NCBI GenBank assembly: GCA_964016885.1
Contig: OZ024741.1
Coordinates: 286,068,001 to 286,132,000, forward strand
Direction of reading: 5' to 3'
Length of the DNA stretch: 64,000 nucleotides
DNA from: Eledone cirrhosa
Taxonomy: Eukaryota
The position numbers and the translations under genes were made by a program. The notes beneath the pieces were generated by a model. The model saw only the letters and a program-made list of their open reading frames with translations, did no database searches and was not told where the DNA came from. Within the stretch, counting starts at the first letter, position 1. Every line of letters begins with the position of its first letter. Positions 1,056 through 60,316 of the stretch are shown here, in pieces.

Positions 1056-1249
1056 GGTCTAAGCGGACGTATTTTCCTCGCTCACAGTAAGTCGCTTTAT
1101 TTGCCTGTTTAAATTATTTGTTGTTAATACTTCTTGTTGTGTAAGGGATATAAGCCCTTAGACTTTGCCCCGTGATGGGGAAAGTATAATATTTGTATAA
1201 TATTTGAACTTTTTTTTAAATGTTAAAAAATTTACGAAGAAAAAAAAAC

Positions 1250-2650
1250 ATGGTTGGGCCACGCCCCCCAGCGATATGTCGGCTGTCGTGCGACAACGAC
1301 GTAGAAGTTAAGAGGAGCGCTACAGCGAAATTAACTCACATTGATAACACAAACACCACCACAAACAAGGTAAACAAAGACACCAATGATACCAATAAGA
1401 ACTCTAATTTGAAAAAAAATGACAGTAACAGCGACAACGAAAATACAGATAACAAAAAAAAAAAATAACAAATGCAACAACAATATCAACACCACTAACA
1501 TGAAAACAAACAGCGACAACACCAACAGCAACAATACCAACTACACCGAGAACAACGGTGGCAGCAAAGACAACAATGATAACAGCGACAGTGCTAACAA
1601 CAACACCAACAAGAACAACGTCGACAACACCCCCAACGAAAACAAGACTACTTTCGCTGCGGCAGCAGCAAAAAAGAGGCCATGCTTCAACATGGACCTC
1701 TCAAACAAAGATGAAAAGTTGGCCCAGGCATGGAAGCTCATCAAGCAAGAGCAAACTTGGGCCAACTTAACTGTCCCGGTAGAAACTATTGAGGCAGTGG
1801 AGCGCAAAACGGTGCATTATAGATGCACCTCAGCACAAACCAAAAGGGCAGCGTTAATCCCACAGGAAGATATCGAAGTCGCGCTGAGATGCATCAGAGA
1901 AGACACCCAGTACATAGAGAGGGGCAGACAGTACGGCACCATTTCGGTATTGTTCAAGTCAGAAGCCCTCGCGATGAAACACGCCATGACTCCTTGCAAA
2001 ACCAGCAAGGTCATAATGTACCCTTCCTACATGGGAAAAAGAACGGCCCGTCTCCGCATTCCCAGAATCCCACCAGGACTTGACATGTGGTGGCTTCTGG
2101 GATGTGTGATTGTGGAGGGGACGGATACAGTCCCTATAGAAGTGACCAGAACGGCCAGAGAGGACTGGTCCGGGGTTGACCTGGAGATCCTTCTCCAGAT
2201 CAGGCCCGAGAATGTGAAGACAATCCCAGACCACATCCGCCTTCAGAATGGGACTGTCATTCACATTATGACCGAAGGCAAAAGGCCGCAGTGTTTTGTT
2301 TGTGGGGAAAAAGCCCATTTGCGAGCCTTCTGCCCTCAACTGCTGAAAGAGGCAAGGGGTCGAAAGGCTCCACTGCTGCCGACGCCGGGGCGAGGACCAC
2401 AACCAACACCTGCACCGGCAAAACCACCAACAACAACACCAATAGAAAGACCACCACCAACATTGACCACCCAGGGGTGAAACGAGGAAAGCTGTCAAAT
2501 TCCCCCTCCCCCCCAAAATACACACACCAATAAAACCTTAAACATACATACAGACACACTTACAGAAACAGACCCCGCATCTACCAATAGTGAAAATGAG
2601 GGAAATCCAAAATCCCCCAAAATACAAAAAAGGAAACACAAAAAGAAAAC
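1250..2650 (+). pseudogene. ORF1 (gag-like, zinc knuckle) of copy A
   Basis: ORFs 1220-1468 and 1419-2480 join across an A-run at ~1454-1465; Asn/Thr-rich N-terminus; CFVCGEKAHLRAFC; Pro-rich tail. Confidence 0.8.
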
Positions 2651-2686
2651 GACTATCAGATCTTTGCATCTGTTAGCCAGCCGGGA

Positions 2687-5600
2687 ATGGGAGGCAGGGT
2701 GGCAGTGCTGTTTAGGAAAGGCCTGGATCTCGAGGTAAGGCCGATCTTCCGGGACTCGGACGGGAAGTTGGTGGTCCTGGACGTGAACAATAATGAAGGT
2801 GGTGCCTTTAGACTGGTGGCCGTCTATGCTCCTACTGGGGCAGGACGGCCGGACTTCTTTAGACGCCTGGAAGCCTTTCTGGGTACGTCTCGCCCTTTAC
2901 TGTTAGCGGGGGACTGGAACGGCATCTTAGACGCACGCTGGGACTGTGTGGGAGTATCCGAGAGGAGCGGGGGGTGCAAAAGTCTCAAGAACCTGATCAG
3001 CCAGTTCCAACTGTCTGACAGGTACCGACTAGATTACCCTAATGCACCAGTGTGGACCTGGGCTAACCGCATAGGGTCATCTAGATCGTATATAGACAGG
3101 ATATTCATTAGGAAAATAGACAGAAATAGTGTAAGCTGTCCACGTTTTGAAACGGTCGCCTATTCAGATCACAAGTTTGTGATCTGTATTGTCGACCTAG
3201 ATAAGACGCGTAGGTTAGGACCTGGTTACTGGAAGCTAAACATGTCATTTCCGGCACGTAAGGCTTACAGGGACCAGGTCAACAATTTAGTTAAGAAAAA
3301 GTTGACAGGGGGAGTCGTCAAAAATAGATGGTGGGAGGCTCTCAAAAGAGAGATTAGAGTAATGTCGATAGAGTTTAGCAAAGAAGTAGCATTGGAGAAA
3401 AATAGAAAGGAGGGAGAGTTGGTAGATAAGTAAGACGAGGCTATTGGTAGTGGTATTGCAACGGATGTGCTAGCGGCGAGAATGGCATTAGACCATTTCT
3501 TCAATGCGAAACACGAAGGTTGCATTGTCAGAGCTAAGGCGCGTGCTCTGAGAAACGAGGAAACCAAAGCTGTTCGATGGGCCCGCGTGGCAGAGGCGCA
3601 GCGTAGTAATAAAACCACGATTCGGTCTTTGACGGACCGAGACGGGCTCGAGCTGAACGATTCCGAGAGGATGTGTGAGGCCTTTCGCCAACATTTTTCT
3701 CGGTTGTTCGGGGGAAGTGGCGGGTCAGAGATGGTGGCAGACTTCAGTCCCTACCTCGATGGCTTACCGCAACTCTCGACGGCTGACGCTGGGCGCTGCG
3801 AAAGGCCAATTACTTCAGCCGAGATTCAGGATGCCCTTGTAGGCTGCATGAGACACAAGTCACCCGGTTTGGATGGTCTTCCCTACGAGCTTTACGTAAA
3901 TATGCCAGACTTGTTCTCCAATCTCCTCGAAGCGCTCTACTGCAACTGGCAGCAAAACGGGAGTATTCCCAGTTCTGTGAGCCGGGGCGTAGTGACGTTG
4001 ATAAGGAAAGACGAGAACAAGAGGGACACATTAGACAATTTCAGGCCCATAACTCTGCTCAACACAGAATTTAAGATTTTGGCCAGGGTGTTAGCGAAGA
4101 GGTTGGCGCTTGTCGTCGGGGATTTGGTTGGGGAGGCGCAAACCAGGTCCATACACGACAACCTCCACCTAATGCGATACATCATAGAGAGGGTAGGGTG
4201 TAAACCTGGCTTCGGTGGGGCTCTGATCAATTTAGATCAATCGAAAGCATTCGATAAGGTCGACCATCGGTACCTGGAGGCTGTCCTCAAGGCGGCTGGC
4301 TTCGGCCCCGTCTTCAGAAGCTGGATCGCTGCAATGCACAGCGGCACCTGCTCGATGGTCAAAATTAATGGCCACCTCTCGGAATCGTTTCAGGTCTCCC
4401 AATTGGTCCATCAAGGATGCCCTCTCTCCTCCCTTCTGTACGTATTGACTCTCGAGCCTTTACTGCGGAAGCTGGAGCTGTTGCAGGGCATCCCGCTCGA
4501 ACCGGGACGCGGAAAGGCTGTGTCGGCTTATGCGGACTACATCACCGTGATGGTGTCGGACACCTTAGAAATCGAGGTGGTCGGCAACTTATTGGAGGAA
4601 TATGAAAGGTTGACGGGAGCAAAACTTAACCCGGAAAAGTCAGTGGGCTTGCAACTCGGCACCTGGAGAGGCAAGTCCATGCCGTCCAACAGTTATCGTT
4701 AGGTGCTGGACGGACGGACCGGTATAGTTGCTAGGGGTTTGGTTCGGGCCAGACCTCCAGGTGGATAAGAATTGGGACGAGGTGACTGGCAGGGTAATCA
4801 GTCTCACCCAGAAATGGGCTGGGATGAAGCTATCACTGAAAGGTCGGGCGGAGGTGGCGAACGCGTACATCGCGTCCGTCATCTACTACCATCTGACTGT
4901 CGTCCCTTGCCCCCGTTCGCGCCTCGCCATCTTGGAGCGGCTCCTCTTCAAATTCTTGTGGAGGGGTCAGGTACCGCTGGTGAGGCGGTCCATCTGCTGC
5001 CAGCACCCTCTACGTGGAGGGCTGGGCATGACGTGGCTAATGATCCGCAGGCACGCGCAGAGGCTGCGGCATCTCCAGATATTCTGCCTAAACGGTGAAC
5101 AGGTGTGGTCGCCGTTTGTCAGACGTGCCTTTCCGCAGCTCGTTTCTTTGACTGAGTTGCAGTCCTGGGTCAAGAAGAGACCGAGACTGGGTGACTGGCA
5201 TCTGGAATGTTGCCAGGCACTCACTGCCTTCTACCAGGCGGGTAATGCGGTCAGTGGAACATCCACTCTCGAGTTCTATAGAGGATTAGTGGTGGGCAAG
5301 TGCGACGACGCACTCGGAGAGGCTCTGGGAGTCAACGAAGTCGAACTAACCAGTCTGTACCGGAGGACTTTCGAGCCGGGGACGATGGATAATTTCCAAA
5401 AATCCCTCGCTTGGCAGTGCTACCGGGGGGCACTGCCGGTTCGAGATAAACTCTACAGGCACGGAAGTGCTGTCAGACGGACCTGCCCGAGATGCGCGCA
5501 GAACGACGAAACCGTTCTGCACGCACTCGTCCAGTGTCCGTGGAGTTATGTTGAACAGCTGTTATCGCGTGTAGAACGGATCCGGCTATCGGCCGAGTCC

Positions 5601-5885
5601 ATAGTGAAGATCGACCTGCCGCCTTCTTTTTGAATGGAAGGGCAGGCAATTTTCCTCTGTCTGGTGGCAGTAGCGAAAGAGGTTGTATGGCGGACGAGGT
5701 TGAAAGGACTGAAGACAGACACTTTTCTCTTCGGCCAATCCCTCATCAACTTTTTCAAGTTTCACTTGGAAAGGAAGGTGAGGGTGGAGAGAGAAGTGCT
5801 GCCCCCCATTACATTTGCTGAAAGGTGGGTGAATGTGGCGAGAATGGCCCGTGTGACTGGGCCTACTCTGGTCATGCGGCTGTAG
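2687..5885 (+). pseudogene. ORF2 (APE endonuclease, reverse transcriptase, zinc-finger-like C-terminus) of copy A
   Basis: VYAP, GDWN, YIDRIF, SDHK (APE); KSPGLDG, FRPITLLN, KAFDKV, QGCPLS, YADY (mutated YADD); CPRC..H..C; stops at 3431, 4726, 5631 and a frameshift at ~4694. Confidence 0.92.
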
Positions 5886-6543
5886 GTAGGTAAATTTGAA
5901 GTGGAGAGGGGTGCCCTTCCAGAGTTCTCTCGAAGCGTCGGGTCGTTCAGGACTGGTGGGGTACCTGAGCGAACCCTAGGTGGTCATCCCCCCCTATTGG
6001 GGAATGTTTTCTTGTAATTTTCTTGTTACTTTATTGTTACTTTGTTATTGTTACTTTGTTTATTCATATTGTTTACTCGATTTTTCTGTAAAACCTCACT
6101 GTCCCAGTCTTTTGTATTGTCCCCTATATGTCGACCTTTGTGGGCAATAAATGAAAACATTATTATTATTATTATTATTGGCAACCAACGTAGTAAATCG
6201 AATCATCGTGAGCTCCGCAAAGGTTTGTTATTTTCAGTTGTTTAAAATTGCCATTTATGGAAACTTTTTATTATTAACTGTATATAAGTGCACATACATT
6301 GATTTCTGAAAAGGACACTCAAAAATATTGGGGTCTTGAGACCAAAATTTAAACTTTTTATAATTATCAAACAAAAATTTTTCTTTGAAAAATAATTGAT
6401 GTCTCAGAGTCACTCCTTCCTCACAATCTAGCACCTCACACCGACACCACCATTGTAAATATTGCTACGTTTTCCAAATTGGAAATGTAAGCAGTAGCAA
6501 TATTTTATATTCTCAGGCAGACGTTCATTTCCCGCCATTACCA

Positions 6544-7873
6544 ATGACTGCAGGTGTTAAAGCCGCCACCACCACCGGAACCGCGACAACCACCACCCTC
6601 ACCAGCACCACAGCGACAACAGAAACAAAAGAAAAAAATAAATTAACTCGTGATATTGAAATGAATTCAACCAAAATGAACTCTTCCACACCGAAGACCA
6701 CTGACGCCACCACCACCACAACTGAAACTAAAATTAACAATAGCAAAAATAACGATAACAACAACAGTAACAACGAAATTTTAAAACTACCCTGAGTTTT
6801 GCCAGAATAGCAAAAACGTGCGAAGCGATCCAGGTAACTCAGGAGGAATTAGAAGAAGCCAAAGGAATGGTAAAGAAAGATGGGTACAGGGTCAGCCCCC
6901 CCCCCCCCTCCAATAAAATGGAGCATCCCAGAGGTAATAGACCTCACTGACGGCAGCCACCTCACCGTAATCGTCGAGGGCAGTAGACCTAGGTGTGTCG
7001 TTTGTGGTGAAGGAACCCACCTAAGGGCTTTCTGCCCTCAGGCTAAAAGGTTGAAGCCACCTCTCTTACCCACCCCAGTGACTCAACCATCAACACCACC
7101 AGCAGCAGAAATGGCAGCAGCAACTGTAGCAGCAACAACAGAAGCAACTGTAACAGCAACAACCCCAGCAACAGTAGCAAAACCAACACCACCACCGCCC
7201 AACGCGCCAGAACTAGCACCAGCGCCTACGCCATCCACCACGCCACAACCCAAACCAACGCCCGTGGGGGATTTTCCACTCCCCGGCTTATCGCAACTGG
7301 AGACAGATTGTGACGACGAGGCGTGGGAAACGGTATCAGGAAAAAAGAAAAAAAGAAACCAAAAAAGAAAAAATTCTCTTCCTTCCCCCTCCAAAAACAA
7401 AATACAGAGGGAAACAAATAAATTATCAAACAAAAAAGTTAGGACAGATATGCCACCATCCACACCAGCATCACCAACCCCGTCACCACAAACACCAACA
7501 TCATCACCATCATTAACCCCAACACCACCATCACCAACACCACAAACGTCACCAAAAAGCGTAACAGAAACAAACCCACAACAAAACAGCATTAAATTTG
7601 AACAACAACCAATTATTACACTACATGCAACACAACACCAGCATCACAGAAAAAGACTACACAACAACCCAAAAGTTCACACCACCTCCACACATACAAA
7701 TCACTCGCATCACACAGAAAACGTACACGACACTAAAACAAAAATTCCCCAAAGACATCGGAGACTTCCGACAAACACTCTCCAGGAGGATTTATAAGGA
7801 CACCCTTCCGGAGGAGGCCACAAGCAGTGAAAAGGATGGACAAACCATCCTTCCTCTACGAGAAGTAAGGTAA
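6544..7873 (+). pseudogene. ORF1 of copy B (middle deleted near poly-C at ~6896-6908)
   Basis: Thr/Asn-rich start, zinc knuckle, PPLLPTP shared with copy A, Pro/Thr-rich tail. Confidence 0.75.
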
Positions 7874-7879
7874 GTGGTC

Positions 7880-10786
7880 TTTCGCCGGTTAGGGGAGGAG
7901 GGTGCAAGAGCCTCACCAACCTGCTCAGGCGTTTTAAACTGTCTGACAGGTACCGATTGGATTTCCCGAATGTGCCAATGTGGACTTGGACAAATCGCAT
8001 AGGGTCATCCTGATCATATCTAGATAGAGTATTTTGTAGAGAAATAGATATGTCTAGCATAGGCTGTCCACAATTCAAGATAGTCAGCTACACGGACCAC
8101 AAATTCGTGATCTGTGTGCTTGACTTAGATAGGCTTCATAGACGAGGACCCGGCTACTGGAAGCTAAACGCGTCCTTACCAGCGCACAATGCCTACAGAG
8201 ACCGGATTAGCGAACTAGTTAAGCGGGCGTTGACGGGGGCCATCGTCAACAACAAGTGGTGGTTTTCTCTGAAAAGAGCAATTAGAATAGAGTCCATTAG
8301 GTTTAGTAAGGCTTTAGCAATAGAGAAAAATAGACCAGAGGGAGAATTAGTTAGAAAATTAGACGAGGCGCTTAGCAAAGGCATCGTGACCGACGTACTT
8401 GCGGCGAAATTGGCCCTTGAACATTTCTTCAATGCAAAGCATGAAGGCTGTGTTGTCAGAGCTAAGGTGCGTGCTCTCAGACACGAGGGGACGAAAGCCG
8501 TTCAATGGGCCCGAGTGGCGGAGGCGCGTCGTGGCAACAAAGCCACGATCCGGTCTTTGGTGGACCACGACACTTCGCTCAGTTGTTCGGGGGCAGCGGT
8601 GGGCCGGATCGAGGGATGGACTTTAGTGTCTACCTCGACGGACTGCCGCGGCTCTCGGCCACTGAGGCGGAGTCTTGCGACAAGCTGATAACAGCCGCTG
8701 AAGTACGGGAGGCAATGACTAGCTGCACAAGGGGTAAATCGCCTGGTTTGGATGGTCTGCCCTATGAACTTTACGTACAGATGCCAGACTTGGTCGGAGG
8801 CCTCTTGGCGGATGTCTACTGCAACTAGCAACAGAACGGGAGAATTCCCAGCTCTATGAGCCGAGGAGCTGTGGCGCTGCTGAGAAAGGATCCGAACAAG
8901 GGGGATAACATAGATAATTTTAGGCCCATAACTCTGCTAAACACAGAGTTCAAGATTTTGGCCAAGGTGCTAGCAAAGAGGTTGGCGCTTGTCGTTGGTG
9001 GTCTGGTGGGAGAGGCGCAGACATGCGCCATTCCCGACAGGTCCATCCACGACAACCTCCACCTCATGCGATACATCGTAGAGAGGGTAGCTAGGGAACC
9101 TGGCACGGATGGATTCTTGATCAATTTAGATCAGTCGAAAGCTTTCGATAGGGTCGACCATCGTTACCTAGCGGCAGTGCTGAAGGAGGCTGGCTTTGGG
9201 CCCGTCTTCAGAGGCTGGATCGCTGCGATGCACAGCGACATCTGCTCTGTGGTGAGAGTGAACGGTCACCTTTCGGAACCGTTCAACATCATGCGCTCGG
9301 TCCGCCAAGGATGTCCTCTCTCGTCCCTCTTGTACGTATTGACTCTCGAGCCATTACTGCACAAACTGGAGACGTTGAGGGGGGTCCCGCGCGAACTAGG
9401 ATGCGGAAGATCCGTGTCAGCATATGCGGACGATGTCACCGTAGTGGTGTCGAACGCCAAACACATCGAGGCGATCGGCACTACACTAAGAGAATACGAA
9501 GCTGTGACAGGAGCAATGATCAACCAGGTAAAGTCAGTGGGCCTGAAGCTCGGCACCTGGAGAGGCAGGTCCATGCCGTCCAACAGGGTTGTCGGGCGCT
9601 GGACGGACCAGTTAAATTGCTCGGGGTCTGGTTCGGTCCGGATCTCCAGACGGACAAAAACTGGGACGAGGTGACGAGCAGGGTGGCTTCTCTCACCCAG
9701 AAATGGGCCGAGAGGAAGCTATCCCTGAAAGGTCGAGCGGAGGTGGCTAACGCCTATATTGCGTCCGTCATCTACTACCGCCTGACCGTCGTACGTTGTC
9801 CTAAGCCCCGCGTGACTGCGCTGGAGCGTTTGCTCTTTCTCTTTTTGTGGAGGGGACGGGCTCCGATGGTCAGGCGGTCCATCTGCTGTCAACACCCGCT
9901 ACGTGGAGGGCTGGGCATGCCGTGGCTGATGATGCGCAGACACGCGCTCAGGCTACGACATCTCCACCTCTTCCTCGACGGTGATCAGGTGTGGTCGCCG
10001 TTTGCTAGACACGTTTTTCCCCAGCTCGTCTCCTTGACGGAGCTGCAGTCCTGGGTCAAGCGAAGACCGAGAGGGAGCGCTTGGAGACTGGAATATCTTC
10101 AGGCGCTCACAGCCCTCGACCAATCGGGCAATGTGATCGGTGGAAACTCCACCTTGGCGTTCTATAGGGGATTAGTGGAGGGGAAGAGCGACGACGTACT
10201 TGGAGAAACTCTAGGCGTCGACGAAAATCAACTAGCCAATCTCTTCGGAAGGACTTTCGGGCCGGGGCCTATGGACAACTTCCAAAAATCCCTGGCCTGG
10301 CAGTGCTACCGGGGTGCTTTGCCAGTTCGGGATAAACTTTACAGGCATGGAGGTGCCGTCAGCCGGGCATGTCCGAGATGCGCACAGGGCGACGAAACCG
10401 TCCTGCACGCACTCGTCCAGTGTCCGAGCATTGCTGACTTGTGGGTTTATGTCGAACACCTGTTGTCACATGTAGGACGGATCCAGCTATCAGCTGAGTC
10501 CATTGTGAGGATTGCCCCGCCCTCTTCCTTTAGCCGGGAAGGGCAGGCAGTTTTTATCTGTCTGGTGGCCATGGCGAAAGAGATAGTATGGTGGACACGT
10601 TTGAAAGGGCTGAAGACGAGCACTTACCTCTTCGGTGATGCCCTGATTAACTTTTTCAAATTTCATCTGAAAAGAAAAATCAGGGTAGAGAGGGAAGTGC
10701 TCTCTTCCCAGCATTTTGTTGAAAGATGGGTGAGAGAAGCAAGTATGGCCCGAATGAATGGGCCTTCTCTGAGTATGTGTCTGTAA
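7880..10786 (+). pseudogene. ORF2 of copy B (APE N-terminus deleted, several stops and frameshifts)
   Basis: TDHK, GYWKLN, KSPGLDG, FRPITLLN, KAFDRV, QGCPLS, YADD, CPRCAQGDETVLHALVQC. Confidence 0.92.
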
Positions 10787-11029
10787 ATTAAAGGTGGAAA
10801 ACTGAGAGAGGGCACTTGCCCTGGTGGTCAGGGCCACTGTGGTCTTTTAATGGGCTTTCTCCACAAATGTCCCTCGGAAGTCTCCCCCCTATTGGGGAAT
10901 TTTTCTTTGTTATTTTATTTCATCCTCTGTTTTTTTTACACGCAGAAATGCCCATTTGTACCGTCCTGTATTGTCCTGTACTGTCCTTAATGTCTACTTT
11001 ATGTAAACCCTTGTGGTTAATAAAGAAAA

Positions 11030-11065
<36 letters not shown>

Positions 11066-11079
11066 CATTATTATTATTA

Positions 11080-11493
11080 CACTGTATCGGTAGAGCATCG
11101 CACACCCTGCTTCGCGACATACAGGTACGGCCCTAATTTCAAATGCCGCCGAGGTTAGCTTTGCCTTTCCTCCTTACGGGATCGATAAAATAAAGTACCA
11201 GTAATGCACTGGTGCAATTTAATCGACTTTCGCCTCGCCAAAAATTGTTGTCCTTGTGCCTATATCAGAAATCATTATTATTATTATTAGGCAGTATCGA
11301 CAGAGCATCGCACACTCTGCTTCGCGACATAGAGTTACGACGCTTTACTTTCTGATTCCAAATGCTATCAATGTTAATGTTGCCTTTCATCCTGAAGTGT
11401 CGATAAAATAAAATAGCACTAATGTACTGGGAAAAATGTAATCGATTCCACCCACCCCAAAACATTGCTGGCCTTGTGCCTAAATCAGAAATC
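11080..11493 (+). mobile_element. Two tandem tRNA-derived SINEs of the main family (11080-11273, 11290-11493)
   Basis: A-box-like GGCAGTATCG, central GCCTTTCATCC..GTCGATAAAATAAAGTACCAG core (resembles the Meta/MESC SINE domain, from recall), tail CCTTGTGCC..GAAATC-(ATT)n. Confidence 0.85.
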
Positions 11494-24083: not shown

Positions 24084-24588
24084 CTTACGTGTACTTATAG
24101 TTACTAGCGTTTCGTATATATAATTGTTTCTACTTTTGGCACAAGGCCAGCAATTATCCCAGAGCATTACAGGTACTTTATTTTATCGACCCCGTAAGGA
24201 TGAAAAGCAAAGTTAATGATAATTGTGAAGACCAGAGGTAGATATTCATAATTACTTTTATTTACAATCTGCCGTAATACATATTTCAGTGGCTTTGATG
24301 ATTCCGCAATGCAGTCATCACGCAACCACAAACACGACTTCAAGTAATAAGATTGTGATTTAACATTCATATTTCAATGTTGGCTATAGATAAGGAGAAG
24401 GGTGAATACGAAGTTTATTCTTCCGACGTCTGTCCCCTTAAACCTAACCAGAGATTTTAGGATGAGATTGTGGAGTTACGGTGTGTACCTCTACCCTCTT
24501 GCCCATTCGAAAGCATCTTGCTGATTTTAGTTTTAATGCTTAACCTTTAAGCCTTTCGCGTTCCTAACATTATTACTACATAAAGGGG

Positions 24589-28430: not shown

Positions 28431-29779
28431 ACTTCTATTTAGTTTTGATGTGATAAGCTTTTACACCAACATTACACATGATTTAGGAATAAAGGCGATT
28501 AAATACTGGGTGGAATAACATAGAGAAGTGATTCCCACCAGATTCACAGCGCCATTTATATTAGACGCAGTCAAACTTATTCTGGAAAACAACACTTTCT
28601 TCTTCAATGGAAAGAATTACATCCAAATTAGAGGCACAGCGATGGGAACGAAGTTTGCTCCCGTTTACGCGAATTCTGTAATGGGATACTTAGAACAACA
28701 ACTCTACCAAGAAATAGAGGAAAAATATAGCACCGTCTTTAGAAAGTACATTGAAAAATCTTGGAAGAGATACCTTGGCGACTGTTTCATCATCTGGACA
28801 GAACCTCTTGAATAACCTACACCCATCTCTCCAATTCACAAAAGAGATGAGTAGTACCAAATTACCATTCCTAGATAATCAAAAACGACATCACCATTAC
28901 CACGGATATATATTATAAACACACAGACACCCATCAATATTTGAATTTTAAGTCGTGTCATCCACCTCATACAAAACGCAACATCCCGTACTGCCTAGCC
29001 AGAAGAATTTGTACCATTGTAGAAGATACGAATACCAGAAACAAACGCCTAACAGAACTGAGAGAATTTTTGCTCAAACAAAAATACCTATCTCTACTTA
29101 TAGAAAATGGCATACAGCGGGCTATAAAAATACCTATACAACAACTTAGGACAACCCAAGGAAGAAGAAACCAAGAACTGGTCATACTATTTATAATGAC
29201 ACACAACCCATGTCACCAGAAAATCTTCAACACTGCCAAAGCAAACCTACCGATCATTGCTCAAATAATGAATTAAAAGGCTTAATCACAGACCGATCTT
29301 TGACTCTTAGTAAAAGACAGCCGAAAGATTTGAAGCAATTACTAACAAAAGCCAAGTTTGACCTTAACAACAAAGACCAATCATTCATTATATCTAAATG
29401 CAATGATAATCGATGTGGCACATGTCAATCCATACACACTGGTCAATATATGAACACAAAGACTGGAAAAATATTCCCAAATGCAAATATGAACTGTAAA
29501 AGCAGAAATCTAATTTACTGCATTAAATACCCGATTTGTGAAGAACTATATGTCGGTCAAACTGGAAATGCACTATCGGAACGTGCACGGGTGCACCGAC
29601 AGCAAATCAGAGACCCAAATGTCCGTCAGATACCCCTGAGTAACCATCTAGCAACATGTGGTCAGAAAATATTTATAATATTTCCATTCTACAAATTACA
29701 CAGCCCAAGTGAAATCAAGAGAAAAATCAAAGAAAAGAATTTTATTGATAAATTCCAACCCAAGCTAAATGAACAATAA
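28431..29779 (+). pseudogene. PLE RT and GIY-YIG endonuclease remnant
   Basis: SFDVISFYTNI, YIQIRGTAMG, RYLGDC, SCHP, NLIYCI..YVGQTG, HRQQI, KFQPKLN; frameshifted. Confidence 0.88.
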
Positions 29780-29796
29780 TAATGGGATATTACTCC

Positions 29797-30051
29797 TACT
29801 ATGACCATGACCATGTCGACTACCACCACTAACAACAACAACAACAATAATAATAATTGTTTCTACTTTTCGCACAAGGCCAGCAATTACCCAGTGCATT
29901 ACTGGTACTTTATTTTATAGACCCCGTAAATAAAATAAAGTACCAGTAATGCACTGGGTAATTGCTGGCCTTGTGCCAAAAGTAGAAACAATTATTATTA
30001 TTGTTGTTGTTGTTGTTAGTGGTGGTAGTCGACATGGTCATGGTCATAGTA
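29797..30051. repeat. Fold-back palindrome of a SINE 3' end plus ~60 bp of flank
   Basis: Arms mirror around AGACCCCGTAA (~29919-29929); one mismatch seen. Confidence 0.9.
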
Positions 30052-37877: not shown

Positions 37878-40114
37878 GCAGCCCCAAAGACAAACCATCT
37901 GGAAATCACCAGGCCCAGATGGTGTGCAGGGGTATTGGATTAAAAATATAACATCCCTCCACCCGAAACTGACAACCCTATTCAATGACTGATTGGTGTC
38001 GGGTGAGGTACCAGAGTGGTTGACAAAAGGTACCACAGCTCTGGTAATGAAAGACCGAATCAAAGGTAATGATGTTACCAACTATAGATCTATCACATGT
38101 CTGTCCGTAATGTGGAAACTGTTAACAAGCATTGTATCTGAGGAAATCTACCATCACCTCCACATAAACAACTTGTTACCGGACGAACAGAAAGGATGCC
38201 GAAAGAAGTCCCGTGGTACAAAAGACGAATTAGTTATTGATAATATGGAAATGAAGAATTGCAAGAGGAGACACACTGGTCTTACCATGGGATGGATAGA
38301 CTACAAAAAGGCATTCGACATGGTACCTCATTCTTGGATAACCACAAGCCTAGAGATCTTCAAGGTGGGAGATAACATCAGACAGTTGTTGAGCAAAAGT
38401 ATGAAGTCCTTGGAAACAGAGTTAACATCGGGTGGAGAATCCTTGGGAGGCGTGAAGATCAAGAGAGATATCTTCCAGGGAGATAGTTTGACCCTTCTGC
38501 TGTTTGTCCTTGCCATGATACCCCTGACCATTATATTGCAAAAAGTGAGAGCAGGATACAAGTTGGGAAAAAGGGAGCATACCATCAACCACCTCATCTT
38601 CATGGAGATCTTAAACTCTTTGAGAAGAGTGAGAAGGAGTTGGATGTACTTGTTGACACTGACCGTATTTACGCAATGATATATGTATGCAATTTGGTAT
38701 TAATAAGTGTGGAGTCCTTGTGATGAAGAGGGGTAAATTTGAGCAGAAGCAACGGAATCCAGGTACCAACAGGTGAGATGATAAGGAAATTTACACTGAA
38801 GAAGGATACAAATATTTAGGTGTTCTGGAGGCAGATGGCATCAAGAACAAAAAAATGAAGGAATTGATAAGATCTGAGTACATAAGGAGAGTAAGGAGCA
38901 TATTAAAATCACATCTAAATAGTAGGAATGTCATAAGTGCAGTGATTTCCCGAGCTGTGTCTATTTTTAGGTACAGTGTGGGAATTCTGAAATGGAATGT
39001 TGTTGAACAAAAGGAAATGGATAAGAAGACTAGGAAGCTATTGACTATCTACAACATGTTCCACAAGAGGAGTGATGTCGATAGACTCTACTTAAAGAGA
39101 TCTGAAGGGGGAAGAGGTCTTTCAGCATAGAGGACTATGTTCAGATGGTGAAAAGCAACCTGCACAAATACGTGACTGACAGTAGGGAGCCAATGCTCAA
39201 AATTGTACTGAAGGAGAAGACAATAGACCATGGGATGTCCAAGGAGAAAATAACAACAAGGAGGTAGAGCAACCTTCATGAAAAAACCCTTCATAGTACC
39301 TTCTTTAAACAAACTGAATTTAGAGATCCACAGATATGGAACTGGTTAAAAAGAGGAGACCTTAAAAAGGCTACAGAAAGCATGCTAATGGCTGCGCAAG
39401 AGCAGGCCCTCAGAACGAAGTGGGTGAAACACCATATTTACAAGGAGGGGGCTAGCCCACTGTGTAGGATCTGTGGAGAGAGAGAGAGAGAGGAGACTGT
39501 GGCTCACATTGTATCCGAGTGTAAACACCTAGCCCAGACTCACTATAAAGGCTGGAGACAGGATGTGATAGGCTGGGTGATCCACCGGCACCTATGCAAA
39601 ATAAACAATTTACCACATTCTGAGAAGTGATATGAGCATAAGCCAGAGTCGGTGATAGAAAACGATCAGGTGAAGGTGCTATGGGATTTTAGGATACAGA
39701 CGGACAAGAAATTAGAACACAATAGGCCTGACCTGGTGGTTTTGGACAAGGACAAAAGATCGTGCTTGATTGTAGATGTAGCCTGCCCATTCGACACGAG
39801 AGTGCAAGAAAATGAGAGGGAGAAAGTTAACCGATACCAGGATTTAAAGTGGGAGTTAAAAAGGATTTGAAACTGCCATGAAGTCAAGGTCATCCCGATT
39901 GTCATAGGCGCACTAGGTACTATCTCAAAGAGTTTCCAAAGATGGTTAAAGAAGATTAGTCCCGCCCCGCTTTTTGGAACACTTCAAAAGGCATGATTGC
40001 TGGGAACAGCAAGAACCCTCCGATACCTCCTGAATATCTGAGGCTGCGGGTAGCGGCTTGATATTCATTTCAACACATTTTCCAGTTAAATAATATCAAT
40101 GACTGAGACTCAAA

Positions 40115-40115
<1 letters not shown>
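37878..40115 (+). mobile_element. R4/Dong-type RLE non-LTR retrotransposon, 5' truncated and decayed, inserted in (TAA)n
   Basis: WKSPGPDG, YRSITCL, EQKGC, WIDYKKAFD, FQGDSL, CRICG..ETVAHIVSEC, RPDLVV..IVDVACP..EK (PD..D restriction-like endonuclease); (TAA)n at both ends. Confidence 0.88.
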
Positions 40116-40154
<39 letters not shown>

Positions 40155-40248
40155 TGTTTCTACTTTAGGCACAACCTGTAAGGGTCGATAAAATAAAGTA
40201 CCAGTAATGAACTGGGTAATTGCTGGCCTTGTGCCTAAAGTAGAAACA

Positions 40249-40303
<55 letters not shown>

Positions 40304-40462
40304 TTTGAGTCTCAGTCATTGATATTATTTAACTGGAAAATTTGTTGAAATGAATATTAAGCCGCTACCCGCAGCCTCAGATATTCAGGAGGTATCGGAG
40401 GGTTCTTGCTGTTCCCAGCAATCATGCCTTTTGAAGTGTTCCAAAAAGCGGGGCGGGACTAA
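39956..40462. repeat. Inverted duplication of the R4 3' end, (TAA)n and SINE tail around a SINE fragment
   Basis: 39956-40174 mirrors 40229-40462; two mismatches seen and different repeat lengths. Confidence 0.9.
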
Positions 40463-40470
40463 ATAATAAT

Positions 40471-43210
40471 GATTTCATTTATTAGCCACAAGGGCCGACA
40501 TGTAGGGGACAATACAAACACAGGGACAGTGGGGTTTACAATAAGGTCGAGTAAAAGTGCACAATGAAAATATAAAAATATAAAATAAACTATGCATAAA
40601 TATAACAAAATAAATTCCCCGCTAGAGGGTGGACGACCCTGGGGTGACTCGGGTACCCCACCAATCCTGAACTACCCTGCGCTTCTAGGGCACCCAGGGA
40701 TAGCACCCCTCTCCTCAAGTTAGCTAGCCTATAGGCGCATGGTCAGAGTAGGCCCATTCACACGAGCCATTCTCGCCACATTCACCCACCTTTTAGCAAA
40801 TGTTCTGGGGAGCAGCACTTCTCTCTCCACCCTCACCTTCCTTTCCAGGTGAAACTTGAAGAAGTTGATGAGGGATTGGCCGAAGAGAAAAGTGTCTGTC
40901 TTTAGTCCTTTCAACCTGGTCCACCATATAATCTCTTTCGCAACTGCCACCAGACAGAGGAAAATTTCCTGCTCTTCCTTACCTAAGGAAGGCGGTGGAT
41001 CGATCTTCACTATGGACTCGGCCGATAGCCGGACTCGTTCCACACGCGACAGTAGCTGTTCGACATAACTCCACAAGTCAGTAATGCACGGACATTGGAG
41101 AAGTGCGTGCAGAACGGTTTCGTTGTTCTGTGCGCATCTTGGGCAGGTCCGTCTGACAGCACTTCCGTGCCTGTAGAGATTATCCCGAACCGGCAGTGCC
41201 CCCCGGTAGCACTGCCAAGCGAGGGATTTCTGGAAATTGTCCATCGTCCCCGGCTCAAAAGTCCTCCGGTACAGACTGGTCAGTTCAACTTCTCCGAGTG
41301 CGTCATCGCACTTGCCCACCACTAATCCTCTATAGAACTCGAGAGTGGAAGTTCCACTGATCGCATTGCCCGCTTGGTAGAGGGCAGTGAGTGCCTGGCA
41401 ACATTCCAGGTGCCAGTCTCCCAGTCTCGGTCTCTTCTTGACCCAGGACTGCAGCTCAGTCAAACAAATGAGCTGCGGAAAGGCCCGTCTGAATAACGGC
41501 GACCACACCTGTTCACCGTTGAGGCAGAATATCTGGAGATGTCGCAGCCTCAACGCATGTCTGCGCATCATTAGCCACGGCATGCCCAGCCCTCCGCGTA
41601 GCGGTTGCTGGCAGCAGATGAACCGCCTCACCAACGGAACTTGTCCCCTCCACCAAAATTTGAAGAGGAGCCGTTCCAACTTGACGAGGGGCGGACGGGG
41701 GCAAGGCACGACGGTCAGGCGGTAGTAGATGATGGACGCGATGTACGCCACCTCCGCGCGACCTTTCAGTGATAGCTTCCTCCCAGCCCATTTTTGGGTG
41801 AGACTGGCTACTCTGCTCGTTACCTCGTCCCAATTATTTTCCACCTGGAGGTCTGGTCCGAACCAAACCCCGAGCAACTTTACCGGTCCGTCCGTCCAGA
41901 CCCCACGACGCTGTTGGACAGCATGGGCTTGCCTCTCCAGCTTCCGAGCTGCAAGCCTACCGACTTTTCCGGGTTAAGTTTGGCTCCTGTCAATCTTTCA
42001 TATTCCTTCAATAAGGTGCCGACCACCTCGATTTCTGAAGTGTTCGACACCATCACGGTGATGTCGTCTGCATAAGCCGACACCGCCTTTCCACGTCCCG
42101 GTTCGAGCGGGATGCCGTGCAACAGCTCCACCTTCCGCAGTAAAGGCTCGAGAGTCAATACGTACAGAAGGGAAGAGAGAGGGCACCCTTGACGGACCGA
42201 TCGGGAGAGCCGAAATGGTTCCGAGAGGTGGCCATTAACCTTGACCACCGAGCGTGTGCCGCTGTGCATTGCAACGATCCAGCTTCTAAAGACAGGGCTG
42301 AAGCCAGCTGCCTTAAGGACAAACTCCAGATACTGATGGTCGACCCTATCGAATGCTTTCGATGGATCTAAATTGATCAGTGCTCCACCGAAGCCAGGTT
42401 TACACCCTACCCTCTCTATGATGTATCGTGTATGGACCTGGCTGGGATTGCGCAAGTTTGCGCCTCCCCAACCAAATCCTCGATGAGGAGCGCCAATCTC
42501 TTTGCTAACACTTTGGCCAAAATCTTAAACTCTGTGTTGAGCAGAGTTATGGGCCTGAAGTTGTCTAATGTATCCCTCTTGTTCTCGTCTTTCCTTATCA
42601 GCGTCACCACTCCCCTGCTCACAGAACTGTGAATACTCCCATTCTGCTGCCAGTTGCAGTAGAGTGCTTCGAGGAGTTGGAGAACAAGTCTGGCATATTT
42701 ACGTAAAGCTCGTAGAGCAGGCCATCCAAACCGGGTGACTTGCGCCTCATGCAGCCGACAAGAGCGTCCTGAATTTCGGCTGAAGTAATTGGCCTTTCGC
42801 AGCGCTCAGCGTCGACCGTGGAGATGCGCGGCATGCCGTCAAGGTAGGGACTGAAATCCGCTACTCTTTCTGACTCGCCACTCACCCTGAACAACCAAGA
42901 AAAGTGCTGGCGAAAGGCCTCACACATCCGCTTGGAATCGCTTATCTCGTGTCCGTCTCGGTCCGCCAAAGACCGAATTGTGGTTTTATTACCACGCTGC
43001 GCCTCCGCCACACGGGCCCATCGAACAGCTTTAGTTCCCTCGTTGCTCAGCGCACGCGCCTTAGTTCTGACAATGCAACCTTCGTGTTTGGCATTGAAGA
43101 AATGGTCTAATGCCATTCTCGCCGCTTGCACATCAGTTGCGATGCCACTACAAATAGCCTCGTCTAACTTATCTACCAGCTCCCCCTCCTTTCTATTTTT
43201 CTCTAACGCT
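40471..43210 (-). mobile_element. L1/Tx1-clade copy C (5' truncated ORF2 pseudogene, closest to copy A)
   Basis: ORFs 42619-43224, 42416-42622, 41880-42455 (YADD), 40729-41877; 3' end CCCTTGTGGCTAATAAATGAAATC-(ATT)n. Confidence 0.92.
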
Positions 43211-46913: not shown

Positions 46914-47130
46914 CTTTCGCGGAATTAAAATTCTAAAGTAAATTTTCCAGTCCGACCTTCTTTTCTTGGTTTAATAAATACTTTACTCCGTTCTTGCACT
47001 AACCTCTCGATACTACATCTACGATGGATGATTTGCCAAACTTTGAGTGCTTTATTTAATTTATTGCATCATCGTTTACCAAACCAATGCACCGGTTCTA
47101 TCCATTAGTAAAGAGCCTAACATAAATAAT

Positions 47131-49730: not shown

Positions 49731-49739
49731 GTATAAATA

Positions 49740-49781
<42 letters not shown>

Positions 49782-49784
<3 letters not shown>

Positions 49785-50861
49785 GCATTCTTCAATTTCC
49801 TCGGCCACACGTACAAACAGATCTCTGGGCTACCTATGGGCTCTAGTCTGTCCGGCATACTTGCGATCTCGTACATGGACCACCTGGAACGCAAGGCACT
49901 CAACACCTGCCAACCCAACGCCGTCGCCCTCTACTCCAGATACGTCGATGACATACTGATACTCACTTCTTCCCGGGAGATGGCGAATGAAATTCACCAA
50001 ATCTTCAACGACACTGACCATCACGTCGATTTCACCATCGAACACCCTGGAGAAGACGGGTCACTCGCCCTCCTCGACTTCCGTATCAACATCTCGGAAG
50101 AAGGAGACATAAACACCACCTTCTACCGCAAGGCAGCGTGCAAGGACTTATTTGTGCATTACAACTCAGCCCTCCCCAACAACGCTAAGAGAGGCTATGT
50201 CCTAAATGAACTTACACGGATCACTAATAGATGCAGCGACCCGATGGGTGGTCTCACCCATACCACGCAATTCCGTAATCTACTCAAGTCTAATGGATAT
50301 CCCAAGCGACTGATTAACGGAATTAGAGACCCCAGACCCAATAGACAGACACCCACTAGAAACTTAGATAAAAGCAGGTGCTTCTTTAAAATCCCCCACC
50401 TGAGTGAATATACCACGAACGCCATCCGCAGGGCCATACGGAGGGAGGGACTTGACATACATTTGGCCCACACAGGACCTTCGCTCCGCAGATGCCTCTC
50501 CAACAAACCCGACGAGTCAGATGGGACGTGTTCCCTCAGCAACTGCCCGATACGGGGGGCAGATTGCCTACGCACCTATGTCGTATATAAGATTCAATGC
50601 GATAAATGTAACAAGTTTTACATAGGTAGCACCATCCGACCCCTACATGTTCGTATCAAGGAACATGTCAACACCAACGCATCTTCCTTCCGTAAACACA
50701 TCCTTAAATGCGGAAACCCACAGGGCAGACCCTTGGTCACAGTCCTAGCGACTGAACGCAGCATCGGATCCTTAAGGATAAAGGAAGCACTTGTTATTAA
50801 GAACCTCAGACCCCCACTTAACAACCGGGCTGAGAGAAATGAGCTGACATGGCTAATTTAA
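49782..50861 (+). CDS. PLE RT C-terminal half and GIY-YIG endonuclease (uninterrupted but 5' truncated, so not a complete gene)
   Basis: YKQISGLPMGS, RYVDD, LLDF, YRK, NGYP, VVYKIQC..C..FYIGST, RIKEH, EALVI, PPLN. Confidence 0.88.
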
Positions 50862-56850: not shown

Positions 56851-57662
56851 ATGTATGTATGTATGTATGTATAGACCTATAACTCGTGCTGGAGTCGAAA
56901 GAGTGCCGTAGTGACATACAATGTGACCTAATCATTTAAAGCCTAGTGGTGTCCATCCATCGTTCGAGTCTAAACAGCCGATATTTCTGTTAGAGATAAA
57001 AGGGGGGAGGGAATGAGAAAGAAGGAGAGAGAAATAATGAGAGCGGGGGAAAAGAGAGGGAATAAATGAAAGAGCGAAAGAAAGGGAAACTAAGTAAGAA
57101 AGAAATGTACAGGAGAAATCGTACTCAGTACTAGGCTGGTACATTTCTTTATCGAGCTTGAAATGTTGAAAGGCTAAGTTGACCATGACGAGATTTGAAC
57201 TCTGAGTGCTATGACCCGAAATGAATACTGCGAATTATTCTCTCCGGCGTTCTAATGATACTACCAATTCAAGTCCTCGCTACCAACCTTACTACTGACA
57301 CTATTATCATCGTCATCAACATTATCATTATCATTATCGTCACCAACGATAGTAGGAGCCATTACTGTCATCAACGTCAACACCACCACCACCACAAGCA
57401 CCACCACCACCACCATCAGCATCATCATTATCAGCATCATCATCATCAACATCATCATGATTATCATCATGATTATAAACTTCAGAGGCAGTAATTTCAT
57501 TGCCTTCTTCATTGTTATCATTGTCCTCATACTTGTTGTTGTTTACGTATTTTTTTACGGCCAATTTGATAGAGAGATTCATGGAAAATTGTCAACATAT
57601 TTTTATTTATATGCGTTGATATGTTAGAAAGAAAAAAATCAAATTGTTTGTGGAGTAATAAT

Positions 57663-59883: not shown

Positions 59884-60084
59884 TTCAGGATTGGTGTGGT
59901 ACCCGAGTCGCCTCTGGAAGGTTCGCAACCCTCACACCCCTATTAGGGAATTTTTATATATTTTCATTGTTAATTGTTTTTATTATTGTGTATTTTTACA
60001 CGATTTTATTGTACCCCCCTCCCCGCTGTCCCTGTCTTTGTATAGTCCCCTATATGTCGGCCCTTGTGGCCAATAAATGAAATC
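59884..60084 (+). mobile_element. L1/Tx1-clade copy D (3' UTR only)
   Basis: Matches the 3' UTR of copies A and C; ends CCCTTGTGGCCAATAAATGAAATC-(ATT)n. Confidence 0.85.
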
Positions 60085-60110
60085 ATTATTATTATTATCG
60101 TTATTATTAG

Positions 60111-60298
60111 GGCAGTGAATTGGCAGAATCGGTAGAGCGTCGTACACCAAGCTTAGCAGCATAAGAGTTATGGACCTTTACGTTCTGAGTTCAAATCCCG
60201 CCGCGGTTAACTTTGCCTTTCATCTTTACAGGGTTGATAAAATAAAGTACCAGTAATGCATTGGAGTAATTGCTGGCCTCGTGCCGAAAGTAGAAACC
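60111..60298 (+). mobile_element. Main-family SINE inserted in the (ATT)n tail of copy D
   Basis: Full head, core and tail. Confidence 0.9.
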
Positions 60299-60316
60299 AT
60301 TATTATCATTATTATT

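Follow-up and report, generated by a model that had tools for sequence, protein, structure and literature searches.

A SINE and a Tx1-like LINE of the octopus Eledone cirrhosa with a common 3' motif and a common ATTAT target: a candidate SINE-LINE pair

SINEs that carry the 3' tail of an L1-clade LINE are rarely described; the accessible text of two surveys lists only three of them, from maize/sorghum and Chlamydomonas, among 58 pairs and upwards of 800 LINEs belonging to the L1 clade (PMC3472496, PMC3747384). According to the parts available, the end of the maize pair folds into a stem-loop whose loop is fixed while its stems change in a compensatory manner (Ohshima 2012, PMC3472496; Ohshima 2013, PMC3747384), and the ORF2 protein of L2 elements recognises the loop (Hayashi 2014, PMC4176376). 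One open question is whether the L1 group originated as stringent or relaxed readers of RNA, and an animal Tx1 case would support a stringent ancestor. The Tx1 family Keno targets U2 snRNA, no partner SINE is mentioned for Keno, Kibi or Koshi in the accessible portion of the report on SINEU (PMC4494074), and that report found no LINE with the 3' end of SINEU-1 (Kojima 2015, PMC4494074). SINEs make up a large share of octopus repeats, for example 11.6% of the O. vulgaris genome in the available text (PMC13282606). The partner LINEs of MetaSINEs are stated as unknown in the part we could use of the paper on them (PMC4824008), and the octopus elements OR1 and OR2 are mentioned without a partner LINE in the accessible sections of three papers (PMC4758252, PMC4824008, PMC5804259). 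Our literature search, outside Repbase reports and subscription papers, found no description of a SINE/Tx1 pair, and the tail-sharing L1-group pairs in it came only from plants and an alga.

The DNA analyzed here is a stretch of 64,000 nucleotides of the Eledone cirrhosa assembly GCA_964016885.1 (contig OZ024741.1, positions 286,068,001 to 286,132,000), called the window below, whose repeat mix is consistent with the accessible parts of published octopus surveys (PMC13282606, PMC8967140). The following elements are needed for the argument.

1056..6158, plus strand: LINE copy A, near full length, ORF2 broken (from Pfam, translation and ends)
6179..11030, plus strand: LINE copy B, young family with A-T stem, inside the ATT tail of A
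11076..11493, plus strand: two tandem long-type SINE copies in the ATT tail of B
37878..40117, plus strand: LINE fragment ending in (AAT)n, of opposite polarity, which we take to be Dong/R4-like from reading its RT sequence
40471..43210, minus strand: LINE copy C, 5'-truncated
59884..60084, plus strand: LINE copy D, 5'-truncated 3' UTR of an L1/Tx1-type element, 201 bp
60059..60071, plus strand: Tx1 3' hairpin with a 4-bp G-C stem and CTTGT loop, then AATAAA; junction 17 nt past the loop (MFE and centroid folds, 111 ends)
60085..60109, plus strand: (ATT)n tail or target of D, 25 nt, read from the sequence
60091..60108, plus strand: 5' copy of the 18-bp target duplication of the SINE, one mismatch to 60299-60316
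60110..60298, plus strand: short-type SINE copy within the ATT tail of D (family with about 30 hits in the window)
60121..60132, plus strand: A-box-like stretch for Pol III, judged by eye against the consensus
60187..60198, plus strand: B-box-like stretch for Pol III, judged by eye against the consensus
60275..60285, plus strand: SINE 3' hairpin with a 3-bp G-C stem, loop CTCGT in this copy
60299..60316, plus strand: 3' copy of the target duplication of the SINE

The LINE copies A, B and C encode an ORF2 with APE endonuclease, RT and a C-terminal cysteine-rich zf-RVT region (Pfam PF03372, PF00078, PF13966), which is the arrangement expected of the L1 group. Elements of the Tx1 clade have an ORF1 of their own that contains a CCHC zinc knuckle, and translation of ORF1 from A and B revealed a knuckle of the form C-x2-C-x4-H-x4-C; ORF1 gave no Pfam match. 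The RT fragment of copy A found its best PDB match in human L1 ORF2p (110 bits; R2 proteins at most 70 bits) and reached 196-224 bits with six metagenome elements flanked by U2 snRNA (Keno-like), although this comparison with human L1 is biased by the retrieval of the U2-flanked loci with a related query. In an RT tree restricted to sequences other than named Tx1 or L1 references, from which L359, L362 and L435 were left out, copy A groups with two U2-flanked elements (96/94). A target preference, as expected of the Tx1 clade, is also present in the form of (ATT)n before full-length B copies and ATTAT in 5' flanks. The Tx1 type of the LINE lineage is well supported but indirectly, as judged from sequence comparisons; protein searches for annotated homologues yielded no informative clade name. 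Distant Tx1-type elements from metagenomes (L359, L368, L377, L387, L372) terminate in U2 or U1 snRNA sequence.

Among the RT regions in 1.19 Mb, the Tx1 type is the commonest (15; RTE 13, Dong-like 11, Penelope 8, CR1 5, other 4), and the ORF2 DNA of its subfamilies is about 74% identical. Copy B is shorter than the 5.9-kb full length of its family, and its last 200 bp are 100% identical in 37 of 40 scored genome matches. Copy C matches an Argonauta hians protein with 65% identity across 400 aa. Copy D shares 77% identity with the 3' end of copy A, and 40 of its 689 candidate matches in the 3.0-Gb genome were scored. The window also contains Penelope-like fragments at 29150-29779 and 49737-50861, both with GIY-YIG and one with RT.

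The SINE is short (about 190-210 bp), non-coding, high in copy number and flanked by duplications, all of which is characteristic of tRNA-derived SINEs; its strict tail motif occurs 110 times in 1.19 Mb, which extrapolates to about 277,000 per genome. Its head appears tRNA-like from the two boxes judged by eye, and ARAGORN and Rfam gave no tRNA call for it. The body is possibly a Meta domain, the 66-bp unit that follows the head in MetaSINEs. The divergence from the majority sequence has a median of 6.9% in the short type (n=87) and 14.0% in the long type (n=26), compared with 11.0% for pooled G-C-stem Tx1 ends (n=53), a rough age comparison, because the Tx1 loci were chosen by similarity and the subfamilies pooled. 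None of the 113 sampled SINEs lies within 2% of the majority sequence, whereas Tx1 B has identical copies. At L002:1170-1700 a SINE head is joined straight to a Tx1 3' fragment, with the remainder of the SINE not seen just downstream, a junction that is possibly a template-switch chimera. Window positions 29851-29997 are occupied by an inverted pair of SINEs, smaller than the inverted duplication beside LINE C described below.

The sequence-only reading from which this work started had proposed that the SINE and the Tx1-like LINE share a 3' tail. The ends it relied on, at 60055-60084 for the LINE and 11466-11493 for the SINE, read exactly as it quoted them, and similar ends are found in copy A at 6158, in copy B at 11030 and, on the minus strand, in copy C at 40471. 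The proposal stands for a common end of about 30 nt, in which a stem with a CTTGT loop is followed by an A-rich spacer and GAAA and the junction comes 16-17 nt past the loop, but not for an ATT tail of the SINE, which is nearly absent (median 2 ATT units, mostly belonging to the duplication). The alignment with two gaps given for these ends can equally be read as gap-free with compensatory stem changes; anchored on the loop, which is CTTGT in most SINE copies, SINE and LINE ends can be aligned with no more than a single gap, and the stem measures 4 bp in the LINEs as against 3-4 bp in the SINE. Loop, stem pairing and the spacing from loop to end are kept across Tx1 subfamilies and both SINE types, whereas the upstream sequence differs.

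A set of 111 Tx1 ends, picked from 356 candidates via homology upstream of the hairpin, has the loop CTTGT in 94 cases and pairing at stem positions 1-4 in 106, 103, 96 and 93; the third pair is G-C in 47 and A-T in 45 of these ends, and no slid register pairs at all four stem positions. The two outer pairs are A-T in B versus G-C in A, C and D, and the E-type has an outer mismatch. Nine aligned ends are paired in 33 of 36 cells, which none of 500 shuffles reached, with the reservation that related sequences can pair in this way without structure and that the stems represent few subfamily-level events and not 111 independent ones. The hairpin is found in the MFE and centroid structures of all six folded ends, and the folding z-scores from -0.98 to +1.08 indicate that it is small and not unusually stable. 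Hence, what characterizes a stringent pair, a shared 3' sequence at equal distance from the end, which is weak for B, and a stem-loop with compensatory changes, is present.

To score the tails, a profile was built from 143 SINE tails of 119 evenly spaced 10-kb loci, excluding the ATT repeat. Six Tx1 ends obtained +3.7 to +14.9 bits and nine ends of CR1, Dong, RTE, Nimb-like and RTE-X-like elements -1.2 to -9.1 bits, the last three labels resting on a reading of protein motifs; the end of a third CR1 family reached at most 2.7 bits. Hence, no other clade matched the SINE tail better among the sampled LINE 3' ends. The median score per copy was 13.6 bits in 63 non-B ends versus 5.7 in 48 B-type ends, and when the last 40 nt were shuffled 2000 times the observed score was reached twice for D, once for C, never for E, 12 times for A, 81 times for B and 1074 times for CR1. 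Among 1699 ATTATT junctions, 104 score at least 24 bits (taken as SINEs, uninspected) and 13 fall between 12.8 and 24 bits, which by eye are eight worn SINE ends, three Tx1 ends and two unassigned cases. When the profile was run without an anchor, the terminus ranked first in copy C only; in A and B it did not, and sites inside these copies reach 12-13 bits. The tail match is real but rests on its position, and it is modest, being short and weakest in the youngest Tx1 family B. Neither a Tx1 subfamily nor any other LINE with the exact SINE tail was found: the 27 genome matches of a hybrid pattern are SINE-type ends. Metagenome loci with a complete ORF2 end (38 distant L1/Tx1 relatives that are 25-33% identical to the query) include 17 with a downstream AATAAA, and the CTTGT hairpin precedes it in none of them; hence, the hairpin seems lineage-specific. 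The metagenome locus L387 has a 3' stretch with 18.3 bits on the profile and a different layout.

The 18-bp duplication around the SINE at 60110-60298 indicates that it was inserted into the tail of LINE D; at the flanks of D itself no target duplication was seen. The three SINE duplications cited in the sequence-only reading were confirmed, each with ATTAT as its first letters; that at 24569 measures 14 bp, that at 47113 18 bp and that at 57650 13 bp. Near 11080 and 60110, SINEs do sit inside tails of equally oriented LINEs, as it had stated. In the evenly spaced loci, duplications of at least 12 bp flank 47 of 126 SINE copies compared with 20 of 1260 mismatched-flank controls; 44 of the 47 measure 13-20 bp, and they begin at ATTAT. 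Among 20 fetched close SINE copies, 19 were scored and ten have a duplication of at least 12 bp. The reconstructed SINE sites show ATTATT at 27-33 of 33 per position, and ATTAT follows the SINE tail in 93 of 110 cases. Directly before the 5' end, ATTAT was observed in 65/126 SINE, 32/65 Tx1 and 1/15 truncated CR1 copies over a background of 7.1%, the 5' ends of old Tx1 copies being imprecise. Hence, the target motifs of SINE and Tx1 agree when compared. The starts of full-length Tx1 B copies are preceded by (ATT)n in 14/14 cases from 20 extended loci and in 20/20 further ones; extended (ATT)n arrays are where the young B copies lie, whereas most SINEs occupy short ATTATT sites.

SINE and Tx1 LINE are nested in each other's tails: of 111 Tx1 ends, 29 have a SINE of the same strand within 80 nt downstream and one has a SINE of the opposite strand there, and Tx1 fragments also begin right behind SINE ends (e.g. 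L019, L020, L022, L026-L028). Duplications of Tx1 gave five automatic calls in 65 copies, about two of them convincing by eye and both 17 bp long (L125, L238); their lengths are rarely readable, so that the SINE/LINE length comparison rests on about two Tx1 copies. Tx1 ends are also found in Dong tails in the opposite orientation (11/111), and two LINE clades thus exploit the two strands of one microsatellite. At L120-L149 (e.g. L124, L137, L145) a single Dong/R4-like family often has young Tx1-B copies inside its (AAT)n tail.

Collectively, as had been suggested from the window alone, the tail scores, the target motif with its strand and the pattern of duplications favour the Tx1-like LINE as mobiliser of the SINE; they speak against the other LINE families sampled. 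The Tx1 enzyme likely copies the SINE, because both share the tail motif and insert at ATTAT sites in one and the same strand orientation, and mobilisation by this lineage is very probable on the sequence evidence. That ORF2 protein does so through the predicted hairpin is a further step, for which the conserved loop and spacing make a good but less firm case, and the complete explanation, combining the common 3' motif, the same-strand ATTAT site and copying via the hairpin, is in our judgement probably correct. The SINE would be transcribed by Pol III on into the flanking AUUAU, and ORF2p would bind the predicted hairpin, whose loop would confer specificity in the way known from zebrafish L2. 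The APE endonuclease would nick the AAT strand, the freed target end could pair with AUUAU and prime reverse transcription, and a second nick about 15-18 bp off would produce the duplication. Every insertion would thereby add new ATTAT sites, leading to LINE-SINE chains. The subfamilies with a G-C stem (A, C, D and E types) are tentatively regarded as likelier drivers than the youngest family B, because B combines a preference for long (ATT)n arrays with a stem rich in A-T, and the SINE a G-C stem with mostly short ATTATT sites, an argument drawn from biased Tx1 samples.

A similar hairpin was found in the 5' UTR of the Tx1 element, as in the following copies identified with the SINE-tail profile.

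6327..6355, plus strand: degenerate 5'-UTR hairpin copy resembling the SINE tail, 11.6 bits (22.1 bits in young full-length B copies)
L185:1982-2024: 5'-UTR hairpin
L204, near its end: 5'-UTR hairpin

The best match to the SINE tail within full-length B is this 5'-UTR site, which at 22.1 bits tops every Tx1 3' end and was reached by none of 60 shuffles. It lies about 35-45 nt ahead of the likely ORF1 start and is followed by ATTATTAT. The hairpin occurs in 31 of 36 Tx1 5'-end matches, with the stem kept and the loop variable; an A-type form has a 5-bp stem, and older copies score 8.8-15.6 bits. A stand-alone short element corresponding to the B 5' unit was rejected, as all 20 best matches and both unbiased hits continue into the LINE; the SINE model matches this unit only at its positions 152-182. 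Separately, L015 contains a copy of part of the Tx1 5' unit (76% match to that of B) that does not continue into Tx1 ORF1. The 5'-UTR hairpin may derive from the end of an old SINE or LINE that was captured, provide another binding site, or act in transcription as part of a promoter or in translation. It is a speculative idea, which we consider possible at best, that an animal Tx1 reads a minimal CUUGU-loop hairpin 16-17 nt from the RNA end, that the dominant SINE mimics it, and that with the similar 5' hairpin one LINE protein may bind both RNA ends in autoregulation or end pairing. If true, this would mean that an animal element of the L1 group recognises its RNA stringently and that its partner SINE is directed to ATT repeats.

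The target and strand evidence needs no hairpin, and Tx1 could also copy the SINE in a relaxed mode via its AUUAU(U) 3' end alone, with the hairpin as a relic of the origin or in another role. Mammalian L1 is relaxed and SINEU has been linked to Tx1-Mar by target alone, according to the accessible text (PMC4494074), the hairpin folds weakly, and its counterpart in the 5' UTR suggests other uses. However, loop, stem pairing and spacing have been kept across subfamilies of about 74% identity and both SINE types despite differing upstream sequences, and we therefore regard relaxed copying as unlikely. It is hardly credible, in turn, that the SINE tail is akin to the 5'-UTR hairpin or that the 3' likeness arose by convergence towards a small GC hairpin followed by A-rich sequence: the 5'-UTR score does exceed that of any Tx1 3' end, but its loop varies in older copies while the 3' loop is fixed, and only the 3' motif lies at an equal distance to the true element end. 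Moreover, such an origin concerns the source of the tail, and Tx1 would still be the likely mobiliser.

The mobiliser could also be another LINE, an ATT-tailed CR1, a Dong/R4 or an unsampled or extinct element, with the Tx1 nesting due to shared ATT-rich ground. CR1/L2 elements are the usual SINE partners in the available version of Table 1 of PMC3747384, L2 is listed for coleoids in the accessible part of PMC8967140, and the sampled LINE 3' ends do not include those of five low-copy RT loci (L077, L262, L307, L291, L081). A young CR1 family even ends in (ATT)n with its own 3' hairpin; however, CR1 scores -6 to -8 bits and was discarded as partner on tail score, target (no ATTAT) and duplications (0/15). 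Dong/R4 was dropped on strand and tail, because it has (AAT)n in sense versus ATTAT after SINE tails. RTE terminates in (ATG)n, and RTE, Nimb-like and RTE-X-like elements were set aside for their different terminal repeats and negative scores, while a motif scan of the fetched genome loci gave no L2 signature. A mobiliser outside the Tx1 lineage is therefore very unlikely, and copying by Tx1 through the hairpin is the reading we retain.

Some further observations concern these other LINEs. The young CR1 family (L090-L119, L150-L179) has a 945-aa open frame and about 98% identity between copies. The (ATG)n ends of RTE at L055, L078 and L083 closely resemble the ends of nearby short dispersed repeats, which suggests an RTE-tailed SINE in the same genome. 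At window positions 39958-40462 a near-perfect inverted Dong 3' end (about 180 bp, two differences) surrounds two head-to-head SINE fragments and abuts LINE C; this inverted duplication is a fold-back event or an assembly artefact. Finally, the distant loci L052 and L059 share several kilobases of near-identical AT-rich sequence, mitochondrial-looking by eye and possibly nuclear copies of mitochondrial DNA.

The proposed pair offers a motif that is small, open to testing and available with naturally varying stems. If true, it would name a likely engine of octopus SINE expansion and explain the pile-up of SINE, Tx1 and Dong elements at ATT/AAT arrays.

Compared with described systems, as far as their accessible texts go, the pair resembles SINEU and Tx1-Mar of crocodilians in tying a SINE to a Tx1 lineage, which there was concluded from a common target and overlapping ages; SINEU elements have U1/U2 heads and poly(A) ends, whereas a tRNA-like head, an ATTAT/(ATT)n target and a common tail motif are found here. 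Kibi at (TC)n and Koshi at (TTC)n, described along with the U2-targeting Keno, insert into simple repeats like the present Tx1 element does into (ATT)n (PMC4494074). Sharing of 3' ends between an L1-group LINE and a SINE is likewise seen in maize (LINE1-1_ZM with ZmSINE2/3) and Chlamydomonas (L1-1_CR with SINEX-3_CR); however, those pairs come from plants and an alga and share 50-80 nt, while the present one belongs to an animal and the Tx1 branch, shares about 30 nt with a 3-4 bp stem and has a sequence-specific target. With UnaL2/UnaSINE, ZfL2-1 and ZfL2-2 it has in common a 3' stem-loop, the loop as specificity element and a short terminal repeat, although these stringent pairs belong to the L2 clade with binding shown experimentally, and here binding is predicted for a Tx1 element. 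Finally, MetaSINEs and the octopus OR1/OR2 elements, compared by description only, combine a tRNA-type head, a conserved body and an exchangeable tail in the same way as the SINE of Eledone cirrhosa.
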